This document shows positions 1 to 17,122 of a stretch of DNA of 64,000 bases, piece by piece. A model generated the notes under the pieces. That model was not told the origin of the DNA, made no database searches, and saw nothing but the letters and a program-made list of their open reading frames with translations. Positions within the stretch are counted from its first letter, which is position 1. Each line of letters starts with the position of its first letter. A program made the position numbers and the translations under genes. The stretch comes from Eremomyces bilateralis CBS 781.70 (Eukaryota): assembly GCA_010015585.1 (NCBI GenBank), contig ML975162.1; one strand, written 5' to 3'.

Positions 1-1234
1 TCCGCATCCTGGATCGGGTTCTGCCGGCTGACACGGACACGCATTACGGGATACAAGCGCAAGGCCCTCGGCGATCCTTCCGCCAAGCTGTCGGGGGATG
101 CTCCACGGGCGCACTTCACCAACATCTTCTTCAGTGAGATCATCTCGCCACTGCTTCTGATTGTCGTCTGCCTGATCCCGTACTTGTTTATCAACGCACA
201 GACGGGCGTGAACGAAAACAATAACCCCGACAAAGAGCTCGAAGCCACGAACTCGCTCATCCGCGTTGGCATTGTGGCTTTTGCACCCGTCGCCGTCAAC
301 GCTGGCGTTCTTGGAGGGATGTTTGCCCTGGCTTGTTGCGCGGGTCCTTTGCTGTCCATGTGTTGCAAAAAATTCGGCGCTGTCCTTGCCGCCATCGCCC
401 ACGCCATCGCAGTCATCATGCTGCTTGCCTTCTTTGAGGTCATGTTCTTCCTTGAAGGCTGGTCATTCAGCAAAGCCGTGCTCGGAATGATCACGGTCGT
501 TGCTATCCAGCGATTCGTTTACAAGCTGATCATCGCTCTGGCTCTGACGCGTGAATTCAAAGCGGACGCTTCGAACATCGCATGGTGGACGGGCAAATGG
601 TACGCCATGGGTTGGCACACTATCTCTCAGCCGGGCCGTGAATTCCTCTGCAAGATCACTGAGCTTGGCTACTTTGCAGCGGACTTCATCCTAGGACATA
701 TCCTGCTATTCATAATGTTGCCCCCGCTGCTTGTCCCGTATATCGACAAAGTCCATTCGGTTATGCTCTTTTGGCTGCGTCCAAGGTATGTTATGCAACA
801 TTATGTACTTGAAGGCTATCAACTAACGTCCATACAGCCGACAAATTCGACCTCCCATCTATTCCCTCAAGCAGACCAAACTCCGTAAACGACGCGTCAT
901 CCGCTACAGCATCCTGTACTTCACCATGCTGATCGTGTTCATCGCGTTGATTGCCGGACCTCTCGTTGCTGGCGGCGCTCTGAAACTTGAGGAGATGAAA
1001 ATCGAAATGCAGCTCCTGCAGCCTAGCAAGATGGAGAACAATGACACGCGGGGCTACACTAAGACCGGCCGTACACTAGAAGACCCCGAAGCCACTGCCG
1101 GCGGCGGAGGTATCGATAGCACGGAATCCAGTGGCGGCGGTGGCGGTAGCGCCACAGAATCGGCCGGCGCTGATACCACCGACAGTCCATTTGCATCCGA
1201 CAACCCATTCCCCGCACGTTATGTGATGTACTAG
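1..1234 (+). CDS. FKS1: 1,3-beta-glucan synthase paralog, 3' portion only (5' part lies outside the window); exons <1..785 and 838..1234
   Basis: Colinear with 12180-13412 of the full FKS1 (roughly 90% identity by eye). It has the same last intron (GTATGT 786..TACAG 837, branch CTAAC), an open frame, and ends ...[15 protein letters not shown]. Confidence 0.93.
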
Positions 1235-1436: not shown

Positions 1437-1514
1437 TAGGGTGGGTGAAGAATTCAATGAAATCTATTGTTGTTTTAATTGGCTGGTGAGATTTGTCCCC
1501 AACATTTTGAGATG

Positions 1515-1650
1515 TCGTATATCTGCAGGGCCGGAGCTGGGCAGGGGACCAGGCTTCGAGATAGAACACACAACTTACACAATACAACTCTGCTGCTTGA
1601 TGATCAAGTTACCCTGAAATCCATATATATTAGCATGTCTCAATGCGACA
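1515..1650 (+). mobile_element. Diverged or partial LTR related to the solo LTR at 1656-1849
   Basis: Shares CGTATATCTGCAGGGCC and ATAGAACACACAACTTACACAATACAAC with 1727-1788 and ends TGCGACA at 1650. The 5' end is not resolvable. Confidence 0.6.
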
Positions 1651-1655
1651 CCACA

Positions 1656-1849
1656 TGTCGCAGACCAAGGCATAATCTATAGGAGCCTAAGGCTACAAAC
1701 TGCATTAATAACCTTGCCATGAGTCTCGTATATCTGCAGGGCCAGGGAACCGGGCATTCACATAGAACACACAACTTACACAATACAACAACTTTGCTGC
1801 TGTCACCAAATCACCTGACCCCAACCATTTTAGCACTGCCCGTGCGACA
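1656..1849 (+). mobile_element. Solo LTR of an LTR retrotransposon (194 bp)
   Basis: TGTCGCA...TGCGACA perfect 7-bp inverted termini (TG..CA), with a near-identical inverted copy at 6269-6466. The 5-bp flanks are CCACA and GAATC. Confidence 0.82.
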
Positions 1850-2311
1850 GAATCTTATCGAGACTGCACAGCCAGAGCCCAGAGAGGTATTAGCCCTCTT
1901 TGGAGCTGATTGGACCGCCACTGGTTGGCAGGGGGGAGCAATCTCGCCGTATTAGACATTGGTGTATCAGGCATGAGTGTTGTCCTCCTTGGACCGTCCG
2001 ATCATCCCTAATTGAAGAAGAGGAGTACAATACAATACATCAGATCTCCAGGGACCAGTACGGACACTCAGTGGAAAGGGAGTAGCATGGAGAAGGACCA
2101 AAGATCGAAAGTCACCCTCCATGGGCAAAATCTCAAGAGTCAAGAGTCAAGACCAATGGTCTTTATTAACTGTACACGCTAATCGCAAGCTAGATCCGAT
2201 GCGAATTGCCCACGATTCTGTGGTATTATTAATGGGATTCTGGAAGGTGTGGAGACGCGGCCGAGATTCTATCCGATCCTCAATTTCCCAGTTCCAACAT
2301 GAAAGAAAATC

Positions 2312-2564
2312 CATGGCCCCTCCGGGGGGGACGAAATTGAGTTACGTCTCTTGGCATTCCCCCAACCATCACCACCATCACAGGCAGGCCCAATTCGCTC
2401 AAAAACAACATAATACCAAAAAGTATACTCTTTTCCTAACTAAGCAACTACTAGAGGTCTGTTTTGGTGAATTCTCCGCCGCGTTCTGGTTAAGATCGTG
2501 GGAACTGTGCATAGGGGAATGCCAAGAAAGGTAACTCAATTTCGTCTCCCCCGGAGGGCACATG
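2312..2564. mobile_element. MITE-like element (about 250 bp) with about 50-bp terminal inverted repeats
   Basis: 2312-2362 CATGGCCCCTCCGGGGGGGACGAAATTGAGTTACGTCTCTTGGCATTCCCC pairs with the reverse complement of 2514-2564 (few mismatches). No clear TSD. Confidence 0.6.
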
Positions 2565-5500
2565 CGGTGTCGAACTGTCAGTCTGTCAAACGTGAAATCT
2601 GAAAACTGAAAAGGAGCTGCAACAGTTCCTGGCTCCTTCGCCTTTCGGGTCGTCCGCCGGTTTTCGACCCCAAATTCCCCCCCTTGGTCGCCTCCCCCCC
2701 TTGGCCCTCGAGCCTCGACCATCAGTCCATCACTTGCTTTGTTCGGATTTCTTACCTCCTCGACCTTTCCTTATTTGGGCTTCCCCTGGAGCCCCTGGTT
2801 CATTTGGGCCGCGCCCCTAACTTACAAAAGGTCAGTGCGCAGAATCCGCCTCGGATCGAGTGGTTGTCATTGGCTGGATTGTCGGATCGAGTGGAGTGAC
2901 CGAGAGTAGGAGTGGTTCGCTGTTGCCCGCTGGGTGCTGGGCTGCTGGCGTTCCAGCACAATGTCGTCAGTCTCCCAACCGAACGTCTGAAATGCGCGAA
3001 CAACGCAGCACTCCAAGTTCTTCAAATCCAACCTGAATGAAGTCCCACCGGTCGGTCAACGTTCAGAATATCCCACGATCAGGTACTACTATCAGTCCGG
3101 ACAGTCCAACCGAACTGGTGTGACGTGTAAAGCGTCCTTTGTAGTCCTGAATCCGTACAAACGATAGAGGCCCACGATGCAATTATCGCGTGGATTGTGG
3201 CTTGTGACTTGTGAGCTACCGCTCAACGGTGGCAAAATGCCGATCTTACTTATAGGAGTCAAGAACCCACAATCATGAATCCAGAGTTCTATCGGATATC
3301 CAGTGTCTCATCGTGCGGTTTCTAAAAGTAGTCTGTAAAATTCATAGCTTCCCCTAGAAAATGGGCATCGATATGGGTCCAAAGGAAGATTTTCACACCA
3401 GTTCCACACACGCGATCAGGGATTCAAAGTAGATCCTAAAAGGACCTACCTTGCTAACTTAACGGTCTCGAATGTACCGTGAATCGAATATCGATCGTGA
3501 AGGGATTTGATGCTGAAGGTTCCGCATGCTGCTGTCCCGACCGCTCCAGAGTCCAAACTCCAGACGTATCAGAATTTATTCAAATCGCTCAACGCCACTG
3601 ACATCGGCTGCAAGAGGTCTGGCGTGCCGGCGGTTTGTCTCTGCAAGATCCGCCCGTGAAGCGCCAGAACGGCTAGGCCCACCTCTGTGGGCTTGTGGCG
3701 CTCTGCTCAACGACAGGAGTTCACGTTTGTATCCCAGCCACGCAGAGTCCCGGGGTTCCAGGAACGATATGAAGTCCGAAGTTCAACGGTCTCTGCTGTA
3801 AGCCTGTGACACAAGAAAAGGGGATGCGTCATTAATAATGCCGGAGAAGCGTGCAACCGAGCAGCAGTCCAGCTCGGGAGCTGTGGTGTGGAATGGACTG
3901 GAGTACTGCATCGTCCTCATGCTATGACGACACATCCTCCTCTACCAACATGTATTTACAAGTATCAAGTATTCAACGGAGTTGGTCGCCCATTATTTTG
4001 CTCTTCCAGTTGTACGATTTCTTTCCAAAGCTCACTCGCTTTCTACAATAAAGAATTCTTGGTATATAATAGCCAAGGAGCCCATATGGCCTTCGATGCG
4101 CCTGCGGTTGACTTTGGGACCGGCGACATGGGTGTTTGGGTGGGTAACAATTAAACACTGTGTGCCCTGCAATTTACCGGATTTCCACAATACAGCAAGT
4201 GGATGGTTGGGCGACGTCACTCTGCGCAGTAAAGAATTAACCGCGCCCTGGATCTCGCCCCACACCTGCCGGTGGCAAACATGAACACCGGATGGTGTGG
4301 GGCGGACATGGGGCACGGTTACCGTCTTCCGTAATATTGGCTACTTTAAGACGAAATTTCTGGACGCTCATCGGGAGACGGGGCCTGCATTTCTAAGCGG
4401 GTCTGAGTTAACCAGGTCCAAGGTGTGGCAAGTGGCAGCTTCATATTCACTGTTCAGTTCTGAGTTCACAGCGAGACAGCCCGACAGGGGTGCGCATTTG
4501 AGGACCAGCCTTGCCAGCGAGTACATATACGTCATCCTTCAATTACTTGGCGGGTATGATATTGGTATTGACTTAACGCTTCCAGAAGACGCATAGATAC
4601 ACATACCGTATCATATCCATCAGAATATCGCTTAGAGGAGACCTGCTGATATCATTCATAAGATTCGTTTGACTAGTTCTCAACGATAGGACCGGCTACC
4701 TCAATCGCTCCATTGACCCAGCAGCCACAGTAGCTAGTGACCCTTCATCTCTCAAGAATGCATCTGGACCGAGGACAATGGTAGTCTCGCGTTCTTACTA
4801 TCAAAATTGGCAGTCGACACAGGTTCCAGTGCCATTCCCATCGGATACCGCCCACCCTGCTAGAACCAGTTCGCTTTGTGGTGGGGACATATCTTTCAAT
4901 GAAAAACTATGGTGTCGAAGGGCTTAGATGCGAGGCGGAGACGCTATCGGTCATGCGTCGGGAGAAATTCCCAGAACTTCAAAAGGAGTTCAGCAGGGAC
5001 TGGGCCTCAGTTGGCAAGTAGGATTTTTGTGCTCAATATAAAATGCGGATTGTAGGTGTTGGATTCCGGTGACTTTCGCATTCTTCTGGTACTATCAAAT
5101 GGAATACCTATTTGCTTTGGTACGGTCCAAGTACTCCCGAGACATGGATGGAAGTTTTTGAATCATGAAGTTCAGTGAGAAGCAGGAGAACTTCTATAGC
5201 CTCCAGAATGGTCCAGCTAGTGGTTGGAAGCCTTATGAACTTGATTGCGGAAACGGCTCATTGAATCTTAGTCAACGGTCAACCGCATATTGAGCCATAA
5301 CCAAGAAGCGGCCTAAGGAGTCGATGAAAAGTGTCCGTTACCCTAACCGCTATACCGGTCGGTAGCTTGACTTAAGAAAGACTGAGATGTAAAGGAGCGA
5401 ACTGATCCTTCCGAACAAGTGAATGGTAGTAGTGTGTTTGGAAAATGGAACATATATTAAGGTCTGCTCAGAAAGAGAAACTCATCTAGTCTTCCTGGGG

Positions 5501-6268
5501 AATTGAGGCACGTTAAGACAGGATTATAGACGTTGAAATGAAATAGGACAGACTTTGGACTTGATTGCCAGGACTTGATTTAACCTCAAAGGCAATGGAT
5601 ATAGTAGACATAGTAATAAGAAATAGAGATAAAGTAAATAAATAGTATGTTGGACGTTGGGAAATGGAAATGTCGCGTTTCAATACTGGTCTAATGATAG
5701 AATCAACATCATCCCTTAACATTATACATAACAATCTTGTGCCCTTGTACTGCGAAAGCAAAATGTTGTGATTTGTAGTCGGTTCTTCCAATTATTTGCC
5801 CGAGCTATACCAGTCTTTTTCAAATAATATTTTTTGTCTCTTTTAAACAAAACGACGGCAAATTGACCTCCATTTTGGGCGGTTTGTGACGCCGTTTTGG
5901 AGGTAAATCTGCCACACTCTGACGCCAATCAGAACTCCCCTTACTCTCCGACATGGATCTCTTCAACATGGATATTCTGTGATAGGTCCCAGGCCTGTGG
6001 CCTGAGCCCCTAAGTGTGGCTGATGGGTTGCGGGCAGATTATCAGAAAAGGAGTCATGTATGAGCAAGTGTGTTAAAATAGCGGAGGAGAGAGCCAATAT
6101 CTCACACACAAAGGTGCGAGGGGATTTCCTCTTTTCTTCTCCCTCTTCAGTTTAGGTCAATGGACCTTGGTAATCGCAGACCTTGCGCATCCAAACCGTG
6201 TGTCACTGCCAAGCTTTACGCATGGGTTAGTCATCCGTACTGGTAATTTACCACCCAGGGAAATGTGG

Positions 6269-6466
6269 TGTCGCACGGGTAGTGCTAAAATGGTTGGGGG
6301 TCAGGTGATTTGGTGACAGCAACAAAGTTGTTGTATTATTATTGTGTCAGTTGTGTGTATGTGAATGCCCGGTTCCCTGGCCCTGCAGATATACAAGACT
6401 CATGGCAAGGTTATTAATGCAGCTTGTAGCCTTAGGCTCCTATAGATTATACCTTGGTCTACGACA
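6269..6466 (-). mobile_element. Solo LTR (198 bp), inverted copy of 1656-1849
   Basis: The reverse complement aligns end to end with 1656-1849 with about 7 substitutions and 3 small indels. Flanks on the + strand are TGTGG and GATTC. Confidence 0.82.
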
Positions 6467-7172
6467 GATTCTCTCAATAATAATAAGATTCCATTTCTCC
6501 ACTCTCAACCCTTGCTTGATCCCCTGTCCTCAACCTGGAGTGTAATAGCAATACACAAAGTATTAAAAAACAAGGCCTATTCCCTGTAAATAACGTGACT
6601 CCTTGTGAGGTGTGCCAGAGGGAGCCCAGAGGTTGTGAGTGCGATTCAGCGGCTGTGCATTTTCACCCTTCGGCCGTCGCAGTTCTGAATTCAGGCTTTC
6701 ACCCTTCACCAGGACCCTTCACGCGCCCCTCGCCCATTTGCCCATCCGCCCACCCACTTCCCCTATCTTTCAACAGAACCTGCCAACAAACCCGCTTCTT
6801 CCTGTTCTCCACTTCCTCCTTCGTCACCCTCTTCTCTTTCTCCCTTCTCTCGTTTCTCTCCTCATCCTCGACTTCCTCTAATCTCCTCCTCCCGGCTTCG
6901 ATTGATTCTGTCCGGGAGACCGCTCTTAACCAACGTTGCGCACCATCCAACCCAGGAGATCTCTCACTCGTTGACTTCTCCTGTCATCTGTCGCTCGCTG
7001 CAAATCATCTCCACAACAACATCATCACGATCTCCCATTTCACATTCCTCAGTGCTGCCTTTCGTTCATTGCGAATTTCCACTGCTGAGTTGATCTCTAC
7101 TCGACGACAATTCTTTCTTGCCGATTAATTCGAGGATCCTGTGCAACTAACTGGTCATGATCCAAGTTTGAA

Positions 7173-7333
7173 GTGAGTGGATCCTTCACCCCAACCTTCC
7201 AAACCGGTTCGCCTGTCAACGCGTTTCAGGAGCAATCCTGAGGCGTGTCCTGCCGCAACCCGCGCCATCAACTTTTACTCACCTGATGTCGTTGAATACT
7301 ATTTGCTGACTTTCGCATCTTGATCCTTCGCAG
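7173..7333 (+). other. Probable 5' UTR intron of FKS1
   Basis: GTGAGT donor at 7173, GCTGAC branch near 7305, and CAG acceptor at 7331-7333, 34 nt before the ATG. Confidence 0.55.
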
Positions 7334-7367
7334 GTTGTCAACTCGTTTTTCTATTCTTTGAGCAGCC

Positions 7368-10300
7368 ATGTCGGGACAACCGCAGCAGGGCTATCACGAC
7401 GACCGTAGCCATGTCCAGGGCCAAGGTCAGGCCACAGGTCAGGCTCACGGTCAGGTCCCGGGCCAGGGCCACGGGGAAGAGGCCTACTACGACGACCACA
7501 ATCAAGCCTATTATGGCCAGCAAGGTTACGATCAGCAACAACAGCCCGGTGATGCATACTATGATGAATCGTACGCCATCCCTCATCGCTCGACTGCCGC
7601 ATGATTTATCCGCTGATTTGACTGCAGAGGCTATTACGACCAGAATGGACAGACACCCCACCCGAATGACACCTACTATGACAATCAAGGCTATCAAGAT
7701 GGCTACTACGACGACCGCTATTACGATCAAGGTCATCCGGACCAGGGAGGACATGGCTATCACGAGTTCGTGTTTTTTGACCCCGCGAACTCAAACCTCA
7801 ACTAACGGCATTGCAGCGGTCAGCCGAGGGGCCACGGGTACGAGGAAGAATCCGAGACTTTCAGCGACTTCACGATGCGCTCCGACATGGCTCGTGGTGC
7901 CGACATGGACTATTACGGACGTGGCGACGAGCAATACAACAGCTACCATGACGGCCACGGACGTGGATACCGCCCGCCATCGTCCCAGATCTCCTACGGC
8001 GCCAATCGCTCGTCGGGTGCGTCCACCCCCATCTATGGCATGGAATATCAAAACGCACTTCCTGCTGGACAGCGCTCAAGGGAGCCGTACCCTGCCTGGA
8101 CTTCGGAGGCCCAGATTCCTCTCTCCAAGGAAGAGATCGAAGACATCTTCCTGGAACTCACCGCAAAGTTTGGCTTCCAGCGAGATAGCATGCGAAACAT
8201 GTACGATCACTTCATGACTCTGCTTGATTCGAGAACGTCTCGTATGCCGCCGAACCAGGCCCTTCTCTCGCTCCATGCCGACTACATTGGCGGCGACAAC
8301 GCCAACTACCGCCGCTGGTACTTTGCGGCGCAGTTAGATCTCGACGATGCTGTTGGATTTTCCAACATGAAACTAGGCAAAACGAACCGTCGAACCCGCA
8401 AGGCCCGCGCCAAAGCGAAGAAGAACGCCCCACAGAATGAAACCGAGACTCTGGAAGCGTTCGAAGGTGACAACAGCTTGGAGGCGGCCGAATACCGTTG
8501 GAAGACGAAGATGAACCGGATGTCTCAGCACGACCGGGTTCGTCAGATCGCTCTCTACCTCCTCTGCTGGGGAGAGGCCAATCAGGTTCGCTTCACACCC
8601 GAGTGTCTCTGTTTCATCTTCAAGTGTGCGGACGACTATCTCAACTCGCCTGCGTGCCAGCAGCGTGTGGAACCGGTGGAGGAGTTCAGCTACCTCAACA
8701 ACGTCATCACTCCGCTCTACCAGTTTATCCGTGATCAAGGATACGAGATCCAGGATGGCAAGTACATTCGTCGCGAACGCGATCATTCCAGCATTATCGG
8801 TTATGACGACATCAACCAACTGTTCTGGTATCCGGAGGGCATCGAGCGAATCGTCCTGGAAGACAAAACCCGTCTCGTCGATCTGAAGCCGGAGGAACGC
8901 TACGTGAAATTGCACGAGGTCCAATGGAAGAAGGTATTCTTCAAGACATATCGAGAGACTCGGTCCTGGTTCCACCTAATGGTCAACTTCAACCGAATCT
9001 GGGTCATCCACATTACCTCATTCTGGTTCTACACCGCCTTCAACTCGCCACAGCTGTACTTGACGGAACCATACGAGCAGCAGATCGACAACCAACCTCC
9101 AAACCCGTACCGTTGGTCTGCCGTCGGTCTCGGTGGTGCCGTTGCCTCGCTCATTATGATCATTGCCACCCTCTGCGAATGGATGTACGTTCCCCGAAAA
9201 TGGGCTGGAGCTCAGCACCTAACCAAGCGACTCTTGTTCCTGATCGTCGTCTTCATTATCAACCTTGCTCCCAGCGTCTACATCTTCTTCATTGCGAAGA
9301 ACAAGACCAGTAAAGTCTCCCACATCCTCGGTATCGTCCAGTTCCTCATTGCCCTGGCCTCGTTCTTCTATTTCTCCATCATGCCGCTTGGTGGGCTTTT
9401 CGGAAGCTACCTCAAGACAAATACGCGCCGCTACGTCGCGAGCCAGACCTTCACCGCAAGCTATCCACGTCTGAAGGGCAACGATATGTGGATGTCGTAT
9501 GGTCTGTGGGTCATGGTATTTGCCGCAAAATTGGCGGAATCGTACATCTACCTCACGCGGTCCTTCCGTGACCCGATTCGAATCTTGTCTACGATGAAGC
9601 TCTCCTCATGCCTTGGCGATGAAATTATCGGCACCATTCTTTGCTACTGGCAACCGAAGGTCCTACTCATCGTCATGTTCTTGACGGATCTGACCCTCTT
9701 CTTCCTCGATACCTACCTGTGGTACATCATATGCAACACCGTCTTCTCCGTCGCTCGTTCTTTCTACCTCGGCGTCTCCATCTGGACCCCATGGCGAAAC
9801 ATCTTCTCTCGTTTGCCGAAGCGTATCTATTCCAAGGTCTTGGCTACGACTGACATGGAAATCAAGTACAAACCGAAAGTCCTCATCTCCCAGATTTGGA
9901 ACGCTGTCGTCATCTCGATGTACCGCGAGCATCTCTTAGCCATCGATCACGTGCAGAAGCTCCTCTATCATCAGGTTCCATCCGAGCAGGAGGGCAAGCG
10001 AACCCTTCGCGCCCCAACCTTCTTCGTCTCGCAGGAAGACCATTCCTTTAAGACCGAGTTCTTTCCGTCTCAGAGCGAGGCGGAACGACGTATCTCCTTC
10101 TTTGCCCAGTCTTTGTCTACTCCAATTCCCGAGCCTCTGCCGGTCGATAACATGCCCACGTTCACGGTTATGATTCCCCACTACGGCGAGAAGATCCTCT
10201 TGTCGCTTCGTGAGATCATCCGAGAGGACGAGCCATATTCCAGAGTCACTCTGTTGGAATACCTCAAGCAGCTCCATCCTCACGAGTGGGATTGCTTCGT

Positions 10301-13300
10301 CAAAGACACTAAGATTCTCGCGGACGAGACCTCCCAGTTCAACGGCGACAATGAGAAGAGTGAAAAGGACACCCAGAAGAGCAAGATCGACGATCTTCCC
10401 TTCTACTGCATCGGTTTCAAGTCTGCTGCTCCCGAGTACACGCTGCGGACTCGTATCTGGGCTTCGCTTCGATCCCAGACTCTGTATCGTACCATCTCTG
10501 GTTTCATGAATTACAGCCGTGCGATCAAGCTGCTGTACCGCGTTGAGAACCCTGAAGTGGTGCAGATGTTTGGCGGCAACTCCGACAAGCTTGAACGCGA
10601 ACTGGAGCGCATGGCTCGCCGAAAGTACAAGATCGTCGTGTCCATGCAGCGATATGCCAAGTTCTCCAAGGAAGAACGTGAAAACACCGAGTTCTTGCTC
10701 CGCGCGTATCCCGATCTTCAGATTGCCTATCTCGATGAAGAACCGCCGGCGAACGAAGGCGATGATCCTCGTATCTTCTCGGCTTTAATCGACGGTCATT
10801 CGGAGATCATGGAGAACGGCCTAAGGCGTCCCAAGTTCCGCGTTCAACTCTCCGGCAATCCCATCTTAGGTGACGGCAAATCCGACAACCAGAACCATGC
10901 CATCATCTTCTACCGTGGCGAATACATCCAGCTCATCGACGCGAATCAAGACAACTACCTCGAAGAGTGCTTGAAGATCCGATCCGTTTTGGCCGAGTTC
11001 GAAGAAATGACCACCGAAAACGTTTCGCCGTACACCCCTGGCGTCGAACGCGACAAGATCGAGCCCGTGGCTATTCTTGGTGCTCGCGAGTACATCTTTT
11101 CGGAGAACGTCGGAATTCTCGGTGACGTTGCCGCCGGGAAGGAACAAACGTTCGGTACCCTGTTCTCTCGTACTTTGGCTCAGATTGGCGGTAAACTTCA
11201 TTACGGCCATCCGGATTTCCTGAACGGCATCTACATGACGACTCGTGGCGGTGTCTCCAAAGCTCAGAAGGGTTTGCATCTCAACGAGGATATTTACGCT
11301 GGTATGAATGCGCTCATCCGTGGTGGTCGCATCAAGCACTGTGAATATTACCAATGTGGTAAGGGTCGTGACTTGGGCTTCGGCTCGATTCTCAACTTCA
11401 CGACGAAGATCGGCACTGGTATGGGAGAGCAGATGCTTTCTCGCGAATACTACTATCTCGGAACACAGCTCCCTCTCGATCGGTTCCTGTCCTTCTACTA
11501 CGCTCACGCCGGTTTCCACGTCAACAACTTGTTCATCATCTTGTCGGTGCAACTTTTCATGTTCGCCGCCATCAATCTTGGTGCCCTCCGACACGAGACC
11601 ATCACTTGCAAGTACAACTCGCGTGTCCCGATTACCGATCGTCTTTACCCAACGGGGTGCGCCAACACGGCACCGATCTTGGACTGGATGGAACGTTGCG
11701 TCGTTTCGATCTTCATCGTCTTCTTCATCTCGTTCGTCCCTCTTGTCGTCCAGGAACTGACCGAACGTGGCTTCTGGCGTGCTGCGACCCGTCTTGCGAA
11801 GCACTTTTCGTCGTTGTCTCCCCTCTTCGAGGTGTTCGTCTGCCAAATCTATGCCAATTCCCTGCATTCGAATCTGTCGTTCGGTGGTGCTCGATACATC
11901 GGAACGGGTCGGGGCTTCGCTACTGCTCGCATCCCCTTCGGTATCCTCTACTCGCGGTTCGCCGGCCCTTCCATCTACATGGGAGCGCGTCTGCTTATGA
12001 TGTTGGTATTCGCCACGCTGACCACCTGGTCCGTCTTCCTGCTGTACTTCTGGATTTCGCTCCTAGCTTTGTGCATCTCGCCGTTCCTTTTCAACCCCCA
12101 TCAGTTCGCGTGGAACGACTTCTTCATCGACTACCGTGAGTACCTCCGCTGGCTCTCCCGTGGAAATACCAAGTCGCACTCCGCATCCTGGATCGGGTTC
12201 TGCCGGCTGACACGGACACGCATTACGGGATACAAGCGCAAGGCCCTCGGCGATCCTTCCGCCAAGCTGTCGGGCGATGTCCCACGAGCGCACTTCACCA
12301 ACATCTTTTTCAGTGAGATCATCTCGCCTCTGCTTCTGATCATCGTCTGCCTGGTCCCGTACTTGTATATCAACGCACAGACGGGCGTGAACGAGAACAA
12401 CAACCCCGACAAAGAGCTCAAAGCCACGAACTCGCTCATCCGCGTTGGCATTGTGGCTTTCGCACCTGTCGCCATCAACGCCGGCGTTCTGGGAGGCATG
12501 TTCGCTATGGCTTGCTGCGCGGGTCCTTTGCTGTCCATGTGCTGCAAGAAATTTGGCGCCGTCCTCGCCGCAATCTCCCACGCCATCGCGGTCGTCATGC
12601 TGCTTGCCTTCTTTGAGGTCATGTTCTTCCTTGAAGGCTGGTCATTCAGCAAAGCCATGCTCGGAATGATCACGGTCGTTGCAATCCAACGATTCGTCTA
12701 CAAGCTGATCATTTCGCTGGCTCTAACGCGTGAATTCAAAGCGGACGCTTCCAATATCGCATGGTGGACGGGCAAATGGTACGCCATGGGTTGGCACACC
12801 ATCTCTCAGCCGGGCCGTGAATTCCTCTGCAAGATCACTGAGCTTGGCTACTTCGCAGCGGACTTCATCCTCGGACATGTTCTGCTGTTCGTAATGCTGC
12901 CGCCGCTACTTGTTCCGTACATCGACAAGGTCCATTCGGTTATGCTGTTTTGGCTGCGCCCAAGGTATGCTATGCAACAATGCGCTTGAAAGCTTTCCAA
13001 CTAACATCTATGCAGCCGACAAATCCGACCGCCCATCTATTCCCTCAAGCAGACCAAACTCCGCAAACGACGCGTCATCCGCTATAGTATCCTGTACTTC
13101 GTGATGCTGGTCGTGTTCATCGCGCTGATTGTCGGGCCTCTCGTTGCTGGCGGCGCCCTGAAGAACCTTCCGGAAATTCCGTTGAATCTCCTACAGCCTA
13201 CCAAGATGGAGAACAACGACACGCGGAATTATTCCAAGACCGGCCGTACGCTGCAAGAGCCCGATGAAACTGCCGGGGGCGGAGGTACTGGTAGTACGGG

Positions 13301-13412
13301 ATCCGTTGGCAGCGCCAGCAGTGGCGGTGGCGCCTCTGAAACGGCCGGCGGTGGTACCCTCAGTCCATTTGCATCTGACAACCCATTCCCTGAACGGTAC
13401 GTGATGTACTAG
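7368..13412 (+). CDS. FKS1: 1,3-beta-glucan synthase catalytic subunit (GT48); exons 7368-7570, 7628-7765, 7817-12964, 13016-13412
   Basis: 1704-aa ORF with FKS motifs ([59 protein letters not shown]). Three GT-AG introns with branch sites join the Gln/Tyr/Gly-rich N-terminus and the C-terminus in frame. Confidence 0.98.
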
Positions 13413-14111
13413 GGGGGAGCAGTTGACGGGTGCGAGGTGGGTGAGAGAAAACGAAGAATAGAATGGATTATGACCAAATTCAAAGATAAGAGCGCCGAAA
13501 ACGATTCGGCTATGCATCATTGTATGATACACACAGCGGTTGCACGGGGTGGGGTTTCGTTTCTCGGCGGTGCATGTTTGTTTCGTCGGTTCCTGCTTAT
13601 CATTACTTCGCATCGAACCATGGGAGGGAAGGGGAGGAGCAGTCTAATGAGTGGTATTCAACAAACTGCGCGTTTATTCTCATCTTGTTGTCCCGACTCC
13701 GGGGAGAGTTAACTGTGTATTGGCGAAAATGGGGAACATGGGTTTGGTCGTTCCAGTTTCTAATGCCGTGCCCTTCGGTATGAGATGCAGTCAAATAGAA
13801 TATCAGATTACTCCAAGACCCAGCTCGACATATGTAGACTGTGATTTATAGGACTTGAGGCATGCTATTGCGGTTCGACGTCAGGAGAGGCTCTCCATTA
13901 GTTCTACCTTATGTCGCTACATCAATCGCATTGCATCCCGGATTATTCGCAGCGAGGTTCACATTAGGGAGTTCTGTCTGTATTCTCCTCGCTAGTTGAT
14001 ACTTAGGTATCTGCTCCCCGAAAAAACCTGAAGCTATATCTGTACTCATTGCCACTGCACCGACTACGACCAGGACGCATAGCTTCTGGGAGCATTTCAT
14101 AGGGAAATTAC

Positions 14112-14123
14112 AGTCACGTGACT
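14112..14123. promoter_or_regulatory. Palindromic E-box AGTCACGTGACT upstream of LCB1 (bHLH site, Cbf1/SREBP-type)
   Basis: Perfect 12-bp palindrome about 340 bp before the LCB1 ATG. The factor assignment is inference. Confidence 0.35.
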
Positions 14124-14460
14124 TTTGGGCCGTCAGCGGAAAAGGAGTTGATCATGACATGGGCATTTAGGTTGGAAAACCATCAGACAGATAGATCGTC
14201 CTTTGGTATTTTATAGGGCTGCTTCACGCACTTAACCATTGAACTCCGTGACATGGTGATGAATCTATGGCAATAGGAGCGCCTCCACCATAACCCTCAT
14301 TACCTTCTGCAGCGATTTCGCGCCCTGAACCCTCTCCTCGAATCCGCATTTACATCAGTATCCTTCCGCGCATCGCTGCTCCTGTCGCTTCCGACTCCCT
14401 CTCCTATAGACCGCCAGCTCTTCCCGAGACACCGGCATAGAAGCAGCGCAGCCGTACATC

Positions 14461-16213
14461 ATGAACGCCTTTCTCCAACCCCTCGGAAACGCCACCACCT
14501 CCGACCTCTTCTCCAGCGTGAGCACCTCCTTCTCCCGCGTCCCCGGCTCCGCCATCATCGCGCGATACATCCGATCGTCGTATCAGGACGACCCCGTCCG
14601 GTCGGCGGTCGAACTCTTCCTATTCCTCTTCGCGTTGCGGTATATTATCTCGCCACGGTATGGCGTGCGCGGCGGCAAGAAAGGCGGCGGGAAGGTGGAG
14701 TTGAGGGACGATGAGATTGAGGATCTGGTGGAGGAGTGGACGCCTGAACCTCTGGTTGGGGAGCTTACAGAGGCAGAGCTCTCGGAGGAGAAGAGCAGGG
14801 TGGTGATTGTAGGGTGTGTATCCGTCTAGGTTATTCCGATGCTGCAGGATGCTGACAGCGGCGTGAAGACAAACCGGCCCGAAAGTCAAACTCAGCACCG
14901 GCAAAACCGTAACCAATCTCGCCTCCCTCAACTTCTACAACTTCGTCGGCTCCGAAATCCTCAAGGAGCGCGCCATCCATACCCTCCGCACTTATGGCGT
15001 CGGTCCCTGCGGCCCTCCCGGTTTCTACGGCCACCAGGACGTGCATATAAAGACGGAGCATGATGTTGCGACGCACCTAGGTACGGCGGCGTGCATCATC
15101 TACGCGCAGGCATTCAGCACGATTTCGTCGGTCATCCCGGCCTTCTCGAAGCGGGGCGACATCATCGTTGCGGACAAGGCGGTCAATTATTCGATCCGGA
15201 GGGGACTGCAGATCTCGCGAAGTCAGATCAAGTGGTTCGAGCACAACGACATGAAAGATCTGGAGCGGGTGCTGAAGGAGGTGGTGAAGAATACACCGAA
15301 GAAGGCTCCGTTGACGAGGAGATTTATCGTCACGGAGGCCCTCTTCGAGAGCACCGGCGATGTGATCGATTTACCGAAGATTGTGAGTGTGTCCCGCATC
15401 GCTGTGGTCCCCTCAACACCGAGTGCATACGGGCTAATAACGGGTTTAGGTCGATCTGAAATTCCAATACAAGTTCCGCCTCATCCTTGATGAGTCCCTC
15501 AGCTATGGCACCCTTGGTCTCACCGGCCGCGGCATCACCGAAGCTCAAAACGTCGACTCCAAGAACATCGACATGATTGTTGGGTCGCTGTCCGGTCCGC
15601 TCTGTGGCGGGGGTGGCTTCTGCGCCGGCTCCAACGAAGTTGTCGTGCATCAGCGGATCAACGCTGCCTCCTACTGTTTCTCGGCTGCGTTACCGGCTCT
15701 TCTGGCCACCACAGCAAGCGAAACGATTGCTCTGTTGCAGACGGAGGAAGGCGCCGCGCTGATGGACCAGGCTCGGGAGCTCAGCCGTCTAATGCGTGCC
15801 CAGCTAGATCCGAGGAGCGAGTGGCTCAAAGTCATGAGCAAAGAGGACAGTCCCTATATCATTGCGGTTCTGAAGAACGAAGCGATCGAGGCGAAGAAAT
15901 GGAGTCATGCAGATCAGGAGGCGATCATGCAGGACATTGTCGACGACGTAAGCTTCCCAATCGTCTTTACTTCCTCTTGATTCTCAAGCTAACCGTTCCG
16001 TGTCTACAGTGCCTCAACAAGGGCGTCCTCATCACCAAAATCAAACGGATGCCTTCCGCTCAAGGTGCCAGCGTGAAGGATTTGGCGAAAGAATGGCAGC
16101 CACAGCCAGCACTGAAGATTTGTGTCGTCGTTGGCTTGACAAAGAAAGAGCTCGAGAGTGCGGGACGGGAGATCAGACATGCAGCAAAGCGTGTGATCAA
16201 TGCCAGGAAGTAA
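14461..16213 (+). CDS. LCB1: Serine palmitoyltransferase subunit 1 (4 exons; introns near 14814-14868, 15384-15449, 15948-16009)
   Basis: YIRSSYQDDPVRSAVEL, WTPEPLV, YGVGPCGPPGFYG, SSVIPAFSKRGDIIVAD and GGGGFCAG segments typical of Lcb1, in an aminotransferase class I/II fold. Confidence 0.93.
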
Positions 16214-16535
16214 CAGCCTGGTCTATTGTATAGTTGCACTGTTAGGCGTTAATTGGTTGGGGGACGGAACGATATTTGGATGTAGCGCGCAGCGCATAGG
16301 GGGGCTTGTATCATCAATTGAAGTAATCCTAATCACTGATTCCCTTCTTGTGGGCAGGGACGGGCAGTTTGCACGAGAAATTCTGAAATATGAGGATTTC
16401 TTCCGCTAGAGTCTCTATCATGGCTTCATAGTCAATCAAACCACCGTCTTAAACCCCCCGTACTGGCGTCTTGAGCGCAAAATCGTTGTTCAACTCGTTG
16501 AAGACATTCGCGAACTGACATCAGTCAACTTATGG

Positions 16536-16563
16536 TCACGTGAAGTATTATCACGTGAAGTAG
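16536..16563. promoter_or_regulatory. Tandem TCACGTGAAGTA E-boxes upstream of RPL29 (Cbf1-like)
   Basis: Two TCACGTGA copies 15 bp apart, about 140 bp upstream of the ATG. CACGTG elements are known in fungal ribosomal-protein promoters. Confidence 0.45.
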
Positions 16564-16691
16564 TTTGGCTGGGCAACCGAAAGCGGCCTAGCTCCCACGG
16601 AATTCGCACATTCAATTCCACAGCCGAAATCAACCTCACCAAACCACCAGCGAGAAACCACCAGTCAAGTACGCGCGGAAACTTTCTCAAG

Positions 16692-17122
16692 ATGGCCAGT
16701 ACGTGTTCCAAGAGGAAGAAGAAGATTATCGGGAGCATAGAATACTGATCCATGCAGAATCAAAGAACTCCTCGCAGCATAACCAGTCCAAGAAGAATCA
16801 CCGTAATGGGTACGTCGCGATCGCACCAACGCGGACTTTCGACCTTCCATCGCTCGATCGCTGCACAAAGAAGGCTTCAATGACTGACTATTATCTTCTA
16901 TAGTATCAAGAAGCCGAGGACCCACAGGTATCCCAGCTTGAAGGGAACCGACCCTAAGTTCCGACGGAACCACAGACATGTTCTGCACGGAACCATGAAG
17001 GCTTTGGTACGTTGCGACGTCGCCCACTGCTGATCCATCTCCCGCATTTGTCGACGAGGACTCGCTAACTTGCGTGCGTTCTACAGAAGGAGCTCAAGGA
17101 GGGCAAGCGTGACACGATTTGA
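16692..17122 (+). CDS. RPL29: 60S ribosomal protein L29 (eL29); exons 16692-16698, 16758-16809, 16904-17006, 17087-17122
   Basis: Spliced product [65 protein letters not shown], with three GTACGT...AG introns. Missed as a unit by the ORF track. Confidence 0.95.

Follow-up and report, generated by a model that had tools for sequence, protein, structure and literature searches.

The FKS locus of Eremomyces bilateralis

A window of 64,000 nucleotides from contig ML975162.1 of Eremomyces bilateralis CBS 781.70 (NCBI GenBank assembly GCA_010015585.1) was analysed. The term "window" is used for this whole stretch throughout the paper. It contains one complete FKS gene and, upstream of it, the 3' part of a second one. 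The downstream gene, which bears the hot spot 1 sequence YLTRSFRDP, was termed copy 2, and the upstream gene the sister copy. Copy 2 is an intact and transcribed FKS1-type catalytic subunit of 1,3-beta-glucan synthase (GT48). UDP-glucose-dependent synthesis of beta-1,3-glucan is its predicted function. Both the echinocandins and ibrexafungerp act on glucan synthase, and clinical resistance maps to residues that are changed in copy 2.

Hot spot 1 is enclosed by an open frame of 1704 codons (7875-12989). The Pfam family Glucan_synthase (PF02364) matched this frame with 1393 bits over profile positions 1-818 of 819, and FKS1_dom2 and FKS1_dom1 were found with 264 and 129 bits, respectively. Public contigs from three runs of the same organism (X1, X2, X3) were placed on 7000-13600 at 85% likeness. 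Four GT..AG joints (7172>7334, 7570>7628, 7765>7817, 12962>13014) were present in run X2 only. As they were missing from the two DNA runs X1 and X3, run X2 was taken as complementary DNA. The following features of copy 2 were obtained, all on the + strand:

7173-7333 (+): intron of the 5' untranslated region, 161 nt, from the first X2 joint
7368..7570 (+): coding exon 1, beginning at the ATG, from X2 joints and translation
7628..7765 (+): coding exon 2, bounded by the second and third X2 joints
7817..12964 (+): coding exon 3, enclosing hot spots 1-3 and the three Pfam domains, from the open frame, Pfam and X2 joints
9546..9548 (+): Ile codon ATC directly before hot spot 1, equivalent to yeast Y638; Phe in near relatives
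9549..9575 (+): hot spot 1, YLTRSFRDP, with Tyr at position 1 (yeast F639) and Arg at position 4 (yeast L642)
9705..9725 (+): hot spot 3, LDTYLWY, Trp retained, by direct translation
11682..11705 (+): hot spot 2, DWMERCVV, Arg retained, by direct translation
13016..13412 (+): last coding exon including the stop codon, from the fourth X2 joint with the cut at +2 (GT at 12965, AG at 13015)

The spliced product comprises 1961 amino acids with an N-terminus rich in Gln, Tyr and Gly. A preliminary description of the locus had called this FKS1 complete, which was borne out by the spliced X2 contigs. The database protein P0004 (1828 amino acids) represents the copy 2 model beginning at an internal Met at 7875; it is 133 N-terminal residues short and identical at the C-terminus. 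An X2 contig of 440 nt matched the 3' end of copy 2 (13035-13474) with 0 differences, in a part where the two copies are 78-90% alike. Copy 2 is thus transcribed, since this contig exactly equals its own divergent 3' end.

Hot spot 1 and its structural context

Direct translation of the codons TAC CTC ACG CGG TCC TTC CGT GAC CCG (9549-9575, + strand) yielded YLTRSFRDP. The 200 residues around hot spot 1 were aligned to the solved Saccharomyces cerevisiae FKS1/FKS2 chains (7xe4, 9pe1, 9wzs) with an E-value of ~1e-79. This alignment was ungapped through hot spots 1 and 3, and the Arg faces the Leu that forms the fourth hot-spot-1 residue. Hot spots 1, 2 and 3 were alignable at the homologous positions of transmembrane helices 5, 8 and 6 (TM5, TM8, TM6) of the solved FKS1 structures. 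The preliminary description had read hot spot 1 exactly as found here by translation and ungapped alignment, and its readings of hot spots 2 and 3, with Arg and Trp retained, were equally exact. The heptapeptide LDTYLWY is common to 91 of the 123 FKS proteins of the aligned set. The Met in third position of hot spot 2 was found in 0 of the 119 other FKS proteins (V 106, I 10, L 1, gaps 2).

A basic residue at position 4 is rare and recurrent

In the set of 119 other proteins the fourth residue of hot spot 1 was Leu in 117 and Arg in 2. Position 1 was occupied by F (103 proteins), Y (13), A (2) or L (1), and the residue before hot spot 1 was F in 92 and I in 3. Three of 180 long FKS proteins were without Leu at position 4, namely copy 2, P0026 (ALTRSFVDT) and P0086 (FLTRSFRDS). 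Hot spot 1 was readable in 46 of 49 further proteins, of which one, from Polytolypa hystricis, carried His at this position (FLTHSFRDP). No additional Arg variant was found among the 114 candidates of a hot-spot-centred protein search. For 80 metagenome loci, 72 of them with hot spot 1, position 4 was Leu in 70, Arg in 1 (the gene of P0026) and Lys in 1 (locus L044, YLTKSVREP).

The Arg variants P0026 and P0086 belong to a Eurotiomycete, Chaetothyriales-like clade with Pyrenula, Exophiala and Fonsecaea, in which the 95%-identical neighbour P0068 retains FLTLSFRDP. L044 groups with Elsinoe and Myriangium (support 100), and its neighbours are housekeeping genes for a kinase, an AAA ATPase, a DEAH helicase, a ribosome-biogenesis protein and a GAT-domain protein. 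Three changes to a basic residue were counted on a tree of 61 rows, giving at least three origins of such a residue at position 4 on our trees. Basic-position-4 variants often carry other changes at known resistance positions (A/Y at 1, V at 7, T/S at 9).

The literature is cited here and below to the extent of the parts of each source that were available. Hot spot 1 of Fks1 from Eutypa lata (Xylariales) and Stachybotrys chartarum (Hypocreales) is also YLTRSFRDP (Durand et al. 2026, Supplementary Table 3, PMC13147539), and both species are marked there as members of the pool of hot-spot-1 orthologs tested in yeast FKS1. Because copy 2 is from a Dothideomycete while these two fungi are Sordariomycetes, the match has to be convergent. 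Eutypa lata and Stachybotrys chartarum were not on our trees; they add at least one further origin, probably two. In Aureobasidium and a large number of Sordariomycetes Tyr is the usual residue at position 1, which accounts for 25 of the 28 entries shown for YLTLS (PMC13147539). The nonapeptide YLTRSFRDP itself is contained in no main text of the literature searched. The preliminary description had regarded the charged Arg at the fourth position as a radical change that it did not recognise. The change is indeed radical and falls at a near-invariant column (Leu in 117 of 119 proteins); the motif was already on record in Eutypa and Stachybotrys, and Arg or Lys recurs elsewhere. It represents a natural FKS hot-spot polymorphism that is found here in a tandem paralog.

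The same surveys turned up further natural hot spots of unusual sequence. The sequence ALALSFRDS, with changes at positions 1, 3 and 9, occurred in eight metagenome loci (L010-L015, L067, L074), one of which groups with Xanthoria; its source is probably a lichen fungus. The proteins P0213, P0103, P0052, P0069 and P0060 include, besides the Polytolypa hystricis sequence, ALTLSFRDP of Glarea lozoyensis and YLTLSVSHP, and two of these five proteins are without the hot-spot-2 Arg (DWVFHSVL, NWIQICII).

The three changes of copy 2 are derived

In an IQ-TREE tree of 62 rows the copy 2 protein was placed within a 27-row clade of all named Dothideomycetes with a support of 100 (Shimodaira-Hasegawa-like approximate likelihood ratio test). 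The FastTree tree of 61 rows gave the same class placement (100) with another, unsupported nearest neighbour. Over residues 400-900 the closest protein of the collection was at most 88% identical to copy 2. Residues 638-642 read F-F-L-T-L in 11 of the 12 nearest Dothideomycete rows, the exception being P0139 with W at 639. Since the nearest relatives read F-F-L-T-L, Ile-638, Tyr-639 and Arg-642 are derived in this lineage, as is the Met of hot spot 2.

Using 1092 columns with at least 97% conservation, copy 2 was found to have 8 substitutions that occur in no other protein, all of them conservative. The exchange of Leu for Arg at 642 was the only radical change at a near-invariant column. This contrast, with Arg as the only radical change and the other 8 unique substitutions conservative, argues against simple decay of the gene.

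Tandem duplication and the sister copy

An upstream paralog, as supposed in the preliminary description, does exist: positions 1-783 encode 261 codons of a second FKS protein. The earlier idea of a possible pair of differing sensitivity is thereby half supported. The rest of the sister copy, including its hot spot 1, is located outside the 64-kb window. The duplicated segments, all on the + strand, are the following:

1..783 (+): sister copy, 3' part of the main coding exon, 261 codons; 252 of 267 protein residues identical to copy 2 (94%)
827..1234 (+): last exon of the sister copy within its open frame, intact, 71% protein identity to the copy 2 tail
7015..7367 (+): probable 5' boundary of the duplicated unit; loose contig ends at 7015 in X1, X2 and X3
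12180..13472 (+): segment of copy 2 repeating 1-1291, with 88.4% in an alignment of 1304 columns
16670..16821 (+): further part of the duplicated 3' flank, with an 89.5% match to 1288-1436, separated from copy 2 by 3.2 kb (13473-16669)

The repeat period is ~12.18 kb. Upstream of 7015 the contigs of all three runs depart from the window sequence, which gives copy 2 an upstream region of its own. The spacer of 5.6 kb that separates the two genes (1437-7014) had no match elsewhere in the window, and no Pfam match beyond a trace of ribosomal protein L29e.

Over the 261 shared codons nucleotide identity was 92.7%, with 0.28 synonymous (dS) and 0.022 nonsynonymous (dN) substitutions per site and a dN/dS of 0.08. 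Given these values and a last exon that is intact in both genes, the duplication is not recent and both copies were kept under purifying selection. The last exon, encoding the cytoplasmic tail (827-1234 versus 13005-13412), shows 71% identity versus 94% for the preceding membrane region; the tail exons diverged freely or under different selection. In the shared C-terminal part 7 changes were derived in copy 2, 4 in the sister copy and 2 were ambiguous, after three positions representing intron read-through had been left out, and no clear asymmetry was thus observed.

Variant sites of the DNA runs showed arms of about 1:1, for example 205/424 in X1 and 153/298 in X3 at 8900. In the central part of the gene, long stretches were each covered by one contig, at roughly twice this depth and with 0-2 differences, while the 3' coding end differs by 7% and the flank by 10-20%. 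Contig depths and differences therefore suggest that gene conversion between the tandem paralogs homogenised most of the gene. Two contigs with full difference lists (X2 record 13 with 10 differences, X1 record 7 with 4) showed none within 11682-11705, for which reason both copies probably share DWMERCVV. A search of the protein collection within the length ranges used did not find the sister copy; the best matches besides P0004 were 88%, 87% and 88% identical. Relative expression of the two copies was also considered from contig depth and dropped, as the 3' end (copy 2 3280 versus sister copy 539) and the segment at 8900-9200 (window-like arm ~520-550 versus other arm ~1720) conflict with each other.

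Some side observations concern the flanks. The 3.2 kb at 13473-16669 are present only behind copy 2 and hold a class I/II aminotransferase in two frames (14867-15490 and 15450-15980), while the flank of the sister copy passes directly to the counterpart of 16670-16821. A weak match to ribosomal protein L29e (E-value 2e-4, under the Pfam cutoff) marks the 3' border of the duplication, at 1264-1617 and at 16670-16821; one of the two may be a truncated duplicate.

A probably less drug-sensitive enzyme

Published structures and mutants point to exactly those positions that are changed in copy 2. In Fks1 of Nakaseomyces glabratus the caspofungin contacts on TM5 are 638, 639 and 642 in yeast numbering (preprint 10.64898/2026.10.21.760291), the same three as the derived positions described above. 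In the same preprint L628F leads to intermediate caspofungin resistance, and the residue touches the drug. In yeast, L642F and L642W confer caspofungin resistance, and F639 and S643 belong to the glucan exit gate (PMC13249079). Enfumafungin is clamped by Y638 and F639, and L642Y raises the minimal inhibitory concentration 2.5-5x (PMC12979857); Y624 and F625 are named as enfumafungin contacts in a further preprint (10.64898/2026.02.07.704550). A deep mutational scan in yeast found F639Y resistant and, after validation, L642K resistant to micafungin; the hot spot of Fusarium was classed as pan-resistant, and F635Y is a resistance change in Candida auris (PMC13147539). The only literature mutation at 642 in the compiled table of that study is L642S, with resistance to arborcandin C, and the term "L642R" has 0 occurrences in the available supplementary files (PMC13147539).

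The preliminary description had linked the exchange of Phe for Tyr at the first position to resistance, a link that agrees with the yeast scan, with C. auris and with Fusarium. Copy 2 hence carries non-consensus residues at hot-spot positions implicated by experiment, with Tyr at 639 and, at 642, through five other substitutions (F, W, K, Y, S). Taken together, we consider the copy 2 enzyme to be probably less drug-sensitive by nature, and the earlier idea of a naturally drug-insensitive synthase is partly supported. A lowered sensitivity, its size and its drug spectrum are predictions from the sequence. The three exchanges F>I at 638, F>Y at 639 and L>R at 642 would remodel the hydrophobic surface of TM5 that contacts caspofungin, and two of the changed residues correspond to those that clamp enfumafungin in solved drug complexes. 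The putative consequence would be weaker binding of lipopeptide inhibitors, and perhaps of triterpenoids, at the glucan exit gate. Judged from helix periodicity, the Arg side chain would point to a water-filled cavity near E635, which lies seven residues earlier on the same helix face.

We are aware of several observations that weigh against lowered sensitivity. Hot spots 2 and 3 of copy 2 retain the key Arg and Trp. Tyr at 639 was also frequent among hot spots classed as sensitive to the three echinocandins (PMC13147539), so Tyr-639 does not predict resistance in every context. Residues 638 and 639 vary naturally (I in 3 of 119, Y in 13 of 119), and two of the three changes are therefore not unusual on their own. 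Copy 2 is off the majority at 15 of 1084 columns with at least 97% conservation, rank 2 of 120 proteins with a median of 0.28%, and some relaxed constraint could explain odd residues without any drug-related selection. The variant may also be simply tolerated, as the Eutypa, Stachybotrys and L044 variants look like ordinary housekeeping FKS1. Finally, the literature searched, within its available parts, gave no susceptibility value for this fungus, for Eutypa, for Stachybotrys or for Arg-642.

Alternative explanations

The first alternative is a drug-neutral polymorphism of the lineage. Here the TM5 changes would stem from drift once duplication had slightly relaxed the constraint, or from a tuning of the glucan exit gate or of its sterol and lipid contacts, with no useful effect on inhibitor sensitivity. 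We regard this explanation as serious though rather unlikely. Besides the natural variation at 638 and 639 and the divergence at conserved columns, the long end branch of copy 2 would agree with it (0.2 versus a median of 0.1 in the 62-row tree; 0.15-0.2 versus 0.08-0.1 over both trees), as would the use of the variant by other fungi as what seems to be their ordinary FKS1. These residues also form part of the lining of the glucan exit and are in contact with ordered sterol and lipid (PMC13249079, PMC12979857, 10.64898/2026.10.21.760291), so that catalysis or the membrane environment could be the object of selection. On the other hand, each reported substitution at 642/628 (F, W, K, Y, S) alters sensitivity to some inhibitor, as far as the cited sources extend. 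The column is Leu in all but two of the 119 proteins, yet a basic residue recurs in it, often together with changes at other resistance positions, and purifying selection between the paralogs is strong.

A second alternative is producer self-protection, where the maker of a glucan synthase inhibitor keeps a resistant second FKS gene beside a sensitive one. Two tandem copies under purifying selection, an own upstream region of copy 2 from ~7015 and changes located on the drug-contact surface would be in line with it, and Glarea lozoyensis, a pneumocandin producer, is altered at position 1 (ALTLSFRDP). The precedent is Pezicula radicicola, where an extra, drug-induced FKS1 lies beside the echinocandin cluster (Yue et al. 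2018, via PMC10296638, PMC10320164). This is, in the available parts of these sources, the accepted case of self-resistance by target duplication in glucan synthase, and a second copy of the drug target is kept at our locus as well. In contrast to Pezicula radicicola, the copies here adjoin each other, and no biosynthetic cluster was found next to the extra copy within the window or within 51 kb downstream. A Pfam scan of frames detected no biosynthetic core enzyme in 13.4-64 kb or in the 5.6-kb spacer, and in particular no non-ribosomal peptide synthetase, polyketide synthase or terpene cyclase in the 51 kb downstream. Of the 23 stop-to-stop frames of at least 250 amino acids in the window, the scan covered 13 that lie outside the FKS genes, with matches to housekeeping families or no match at all; smaller frames near copy 2 showed only the aminotransferase and the L29e trace. 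The apparent identity of hot spot 2 in both copies also speaks against self-protection. To our knowledge, none of the fungi sharing YLTRSFRDP is an inhibitor producer. Self-protection is thus regarded as improbable.

Finally, an artefact of the assembly was considered, in which copies of 93-99% identity were assembled as a mosaic, so that the I/Y/R codons could be those of the sister copy, of both copies or of none. Four other letters were found at full depth in all three runs at 9306-9321, and further contig variants nearby (9101-9109, 11657-11672) fit neither copy as assembled in a simple way; they may result from a strain difference, from gene conversion or from a mosaic assembly of the two paralogs. 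Contig depths suggest that most of the central gene was collapsed between the copies, the sister copy is missing from the protein collection, and an X1 contig over 9483-9783 carries 7 differences from the window at positions that are not among the difference rows listed. These rows cover 40 of the 186 differences between the contigs and 7000-13600, and none of those listed falls within 9322-10162. We nevertheless judge an artefact very improbable, as the three codons lie within 14 nt and are phased together in any read, the window-like path has depth in all three runs in their bin with no full-depth difference among the rows listed, and an identical motif in two named species marks it as a viable natural sequence.

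Comparison with known systems

The preferred reading, a naturally less sensitive copy 2 enzyme, has parallels in other fungi. Like copy 2, Fks1 of Fusarium is a wild-type FKS protein of the essential type with the same change to Tyr at the F639 position (PMC13147539). The Candida parapsilosis group has a natural variant of hot spot 1 with Ala at the last position, linked to intrinsically reduced echinocandin susceptibility. Unlike these variants, copy 2 adds the Arg at position 4 and Ile-638 and occurs in one of two tandem paralogs. Hot spot 1 of Eutypa lata and Stachybotrys chartarum is identical to that of copy 2; in these Sordariomycetes, in contrast, Tyr is the background state and hot spot 2 has Ser for Cys, and Stachybotrys in addition has Phe for the Trp of hot spot 3 (PMC13147539). 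The available parts of the literature mention no tandem paralog for either species. Laboratory and clinical substitutions (yeast L642F/W/K/Y/S, N. glabratus L628F) affect the same residue and helix face as the Arg of copy 2, a residue in contact with caspofungin. In the sources available they are single engineered or selected changes, whereas copy 2 carries a natural triple change.

These parallels invite a bolder proposal, which we put forward tentatively and regard as unlikely in its full extent. The basic residue at position 4, usually accompanied by changes at adjacent contact or resistance positions, would be a resistance allele that evolved naturally and convergently. Lipopeptide or triterpenoid inhibitors produced in the environment would have selected it on at least five occasions in Dothideomycetes, Eurotiomycetes and Sordariomycetes. 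At our locus it would be held in a tandem pair of a sensitive and a resistant copy with separate promoters, despite gene conversion, and possibly for the self-protection of a producer.

Significance

Natural enzymes with such changes show which solutions leave full function in place. The most interesting by-product of the analysis is the recurrent basic residue at position 4 of hot spot 1, which merits attention as a naturally recurrent variable site beyond the laboratory. The tandem pair, mostly homogenised in one genome, offers a natural experiment on the effect of the I/Y/R surface. With the variability of position 4 and this natural experiment the practical gain is small but concrete. Natural variants of this kind may point to fungi for which the coverage of these drugs is poor, or to fungi whose surroundings contain natural inhibitors.

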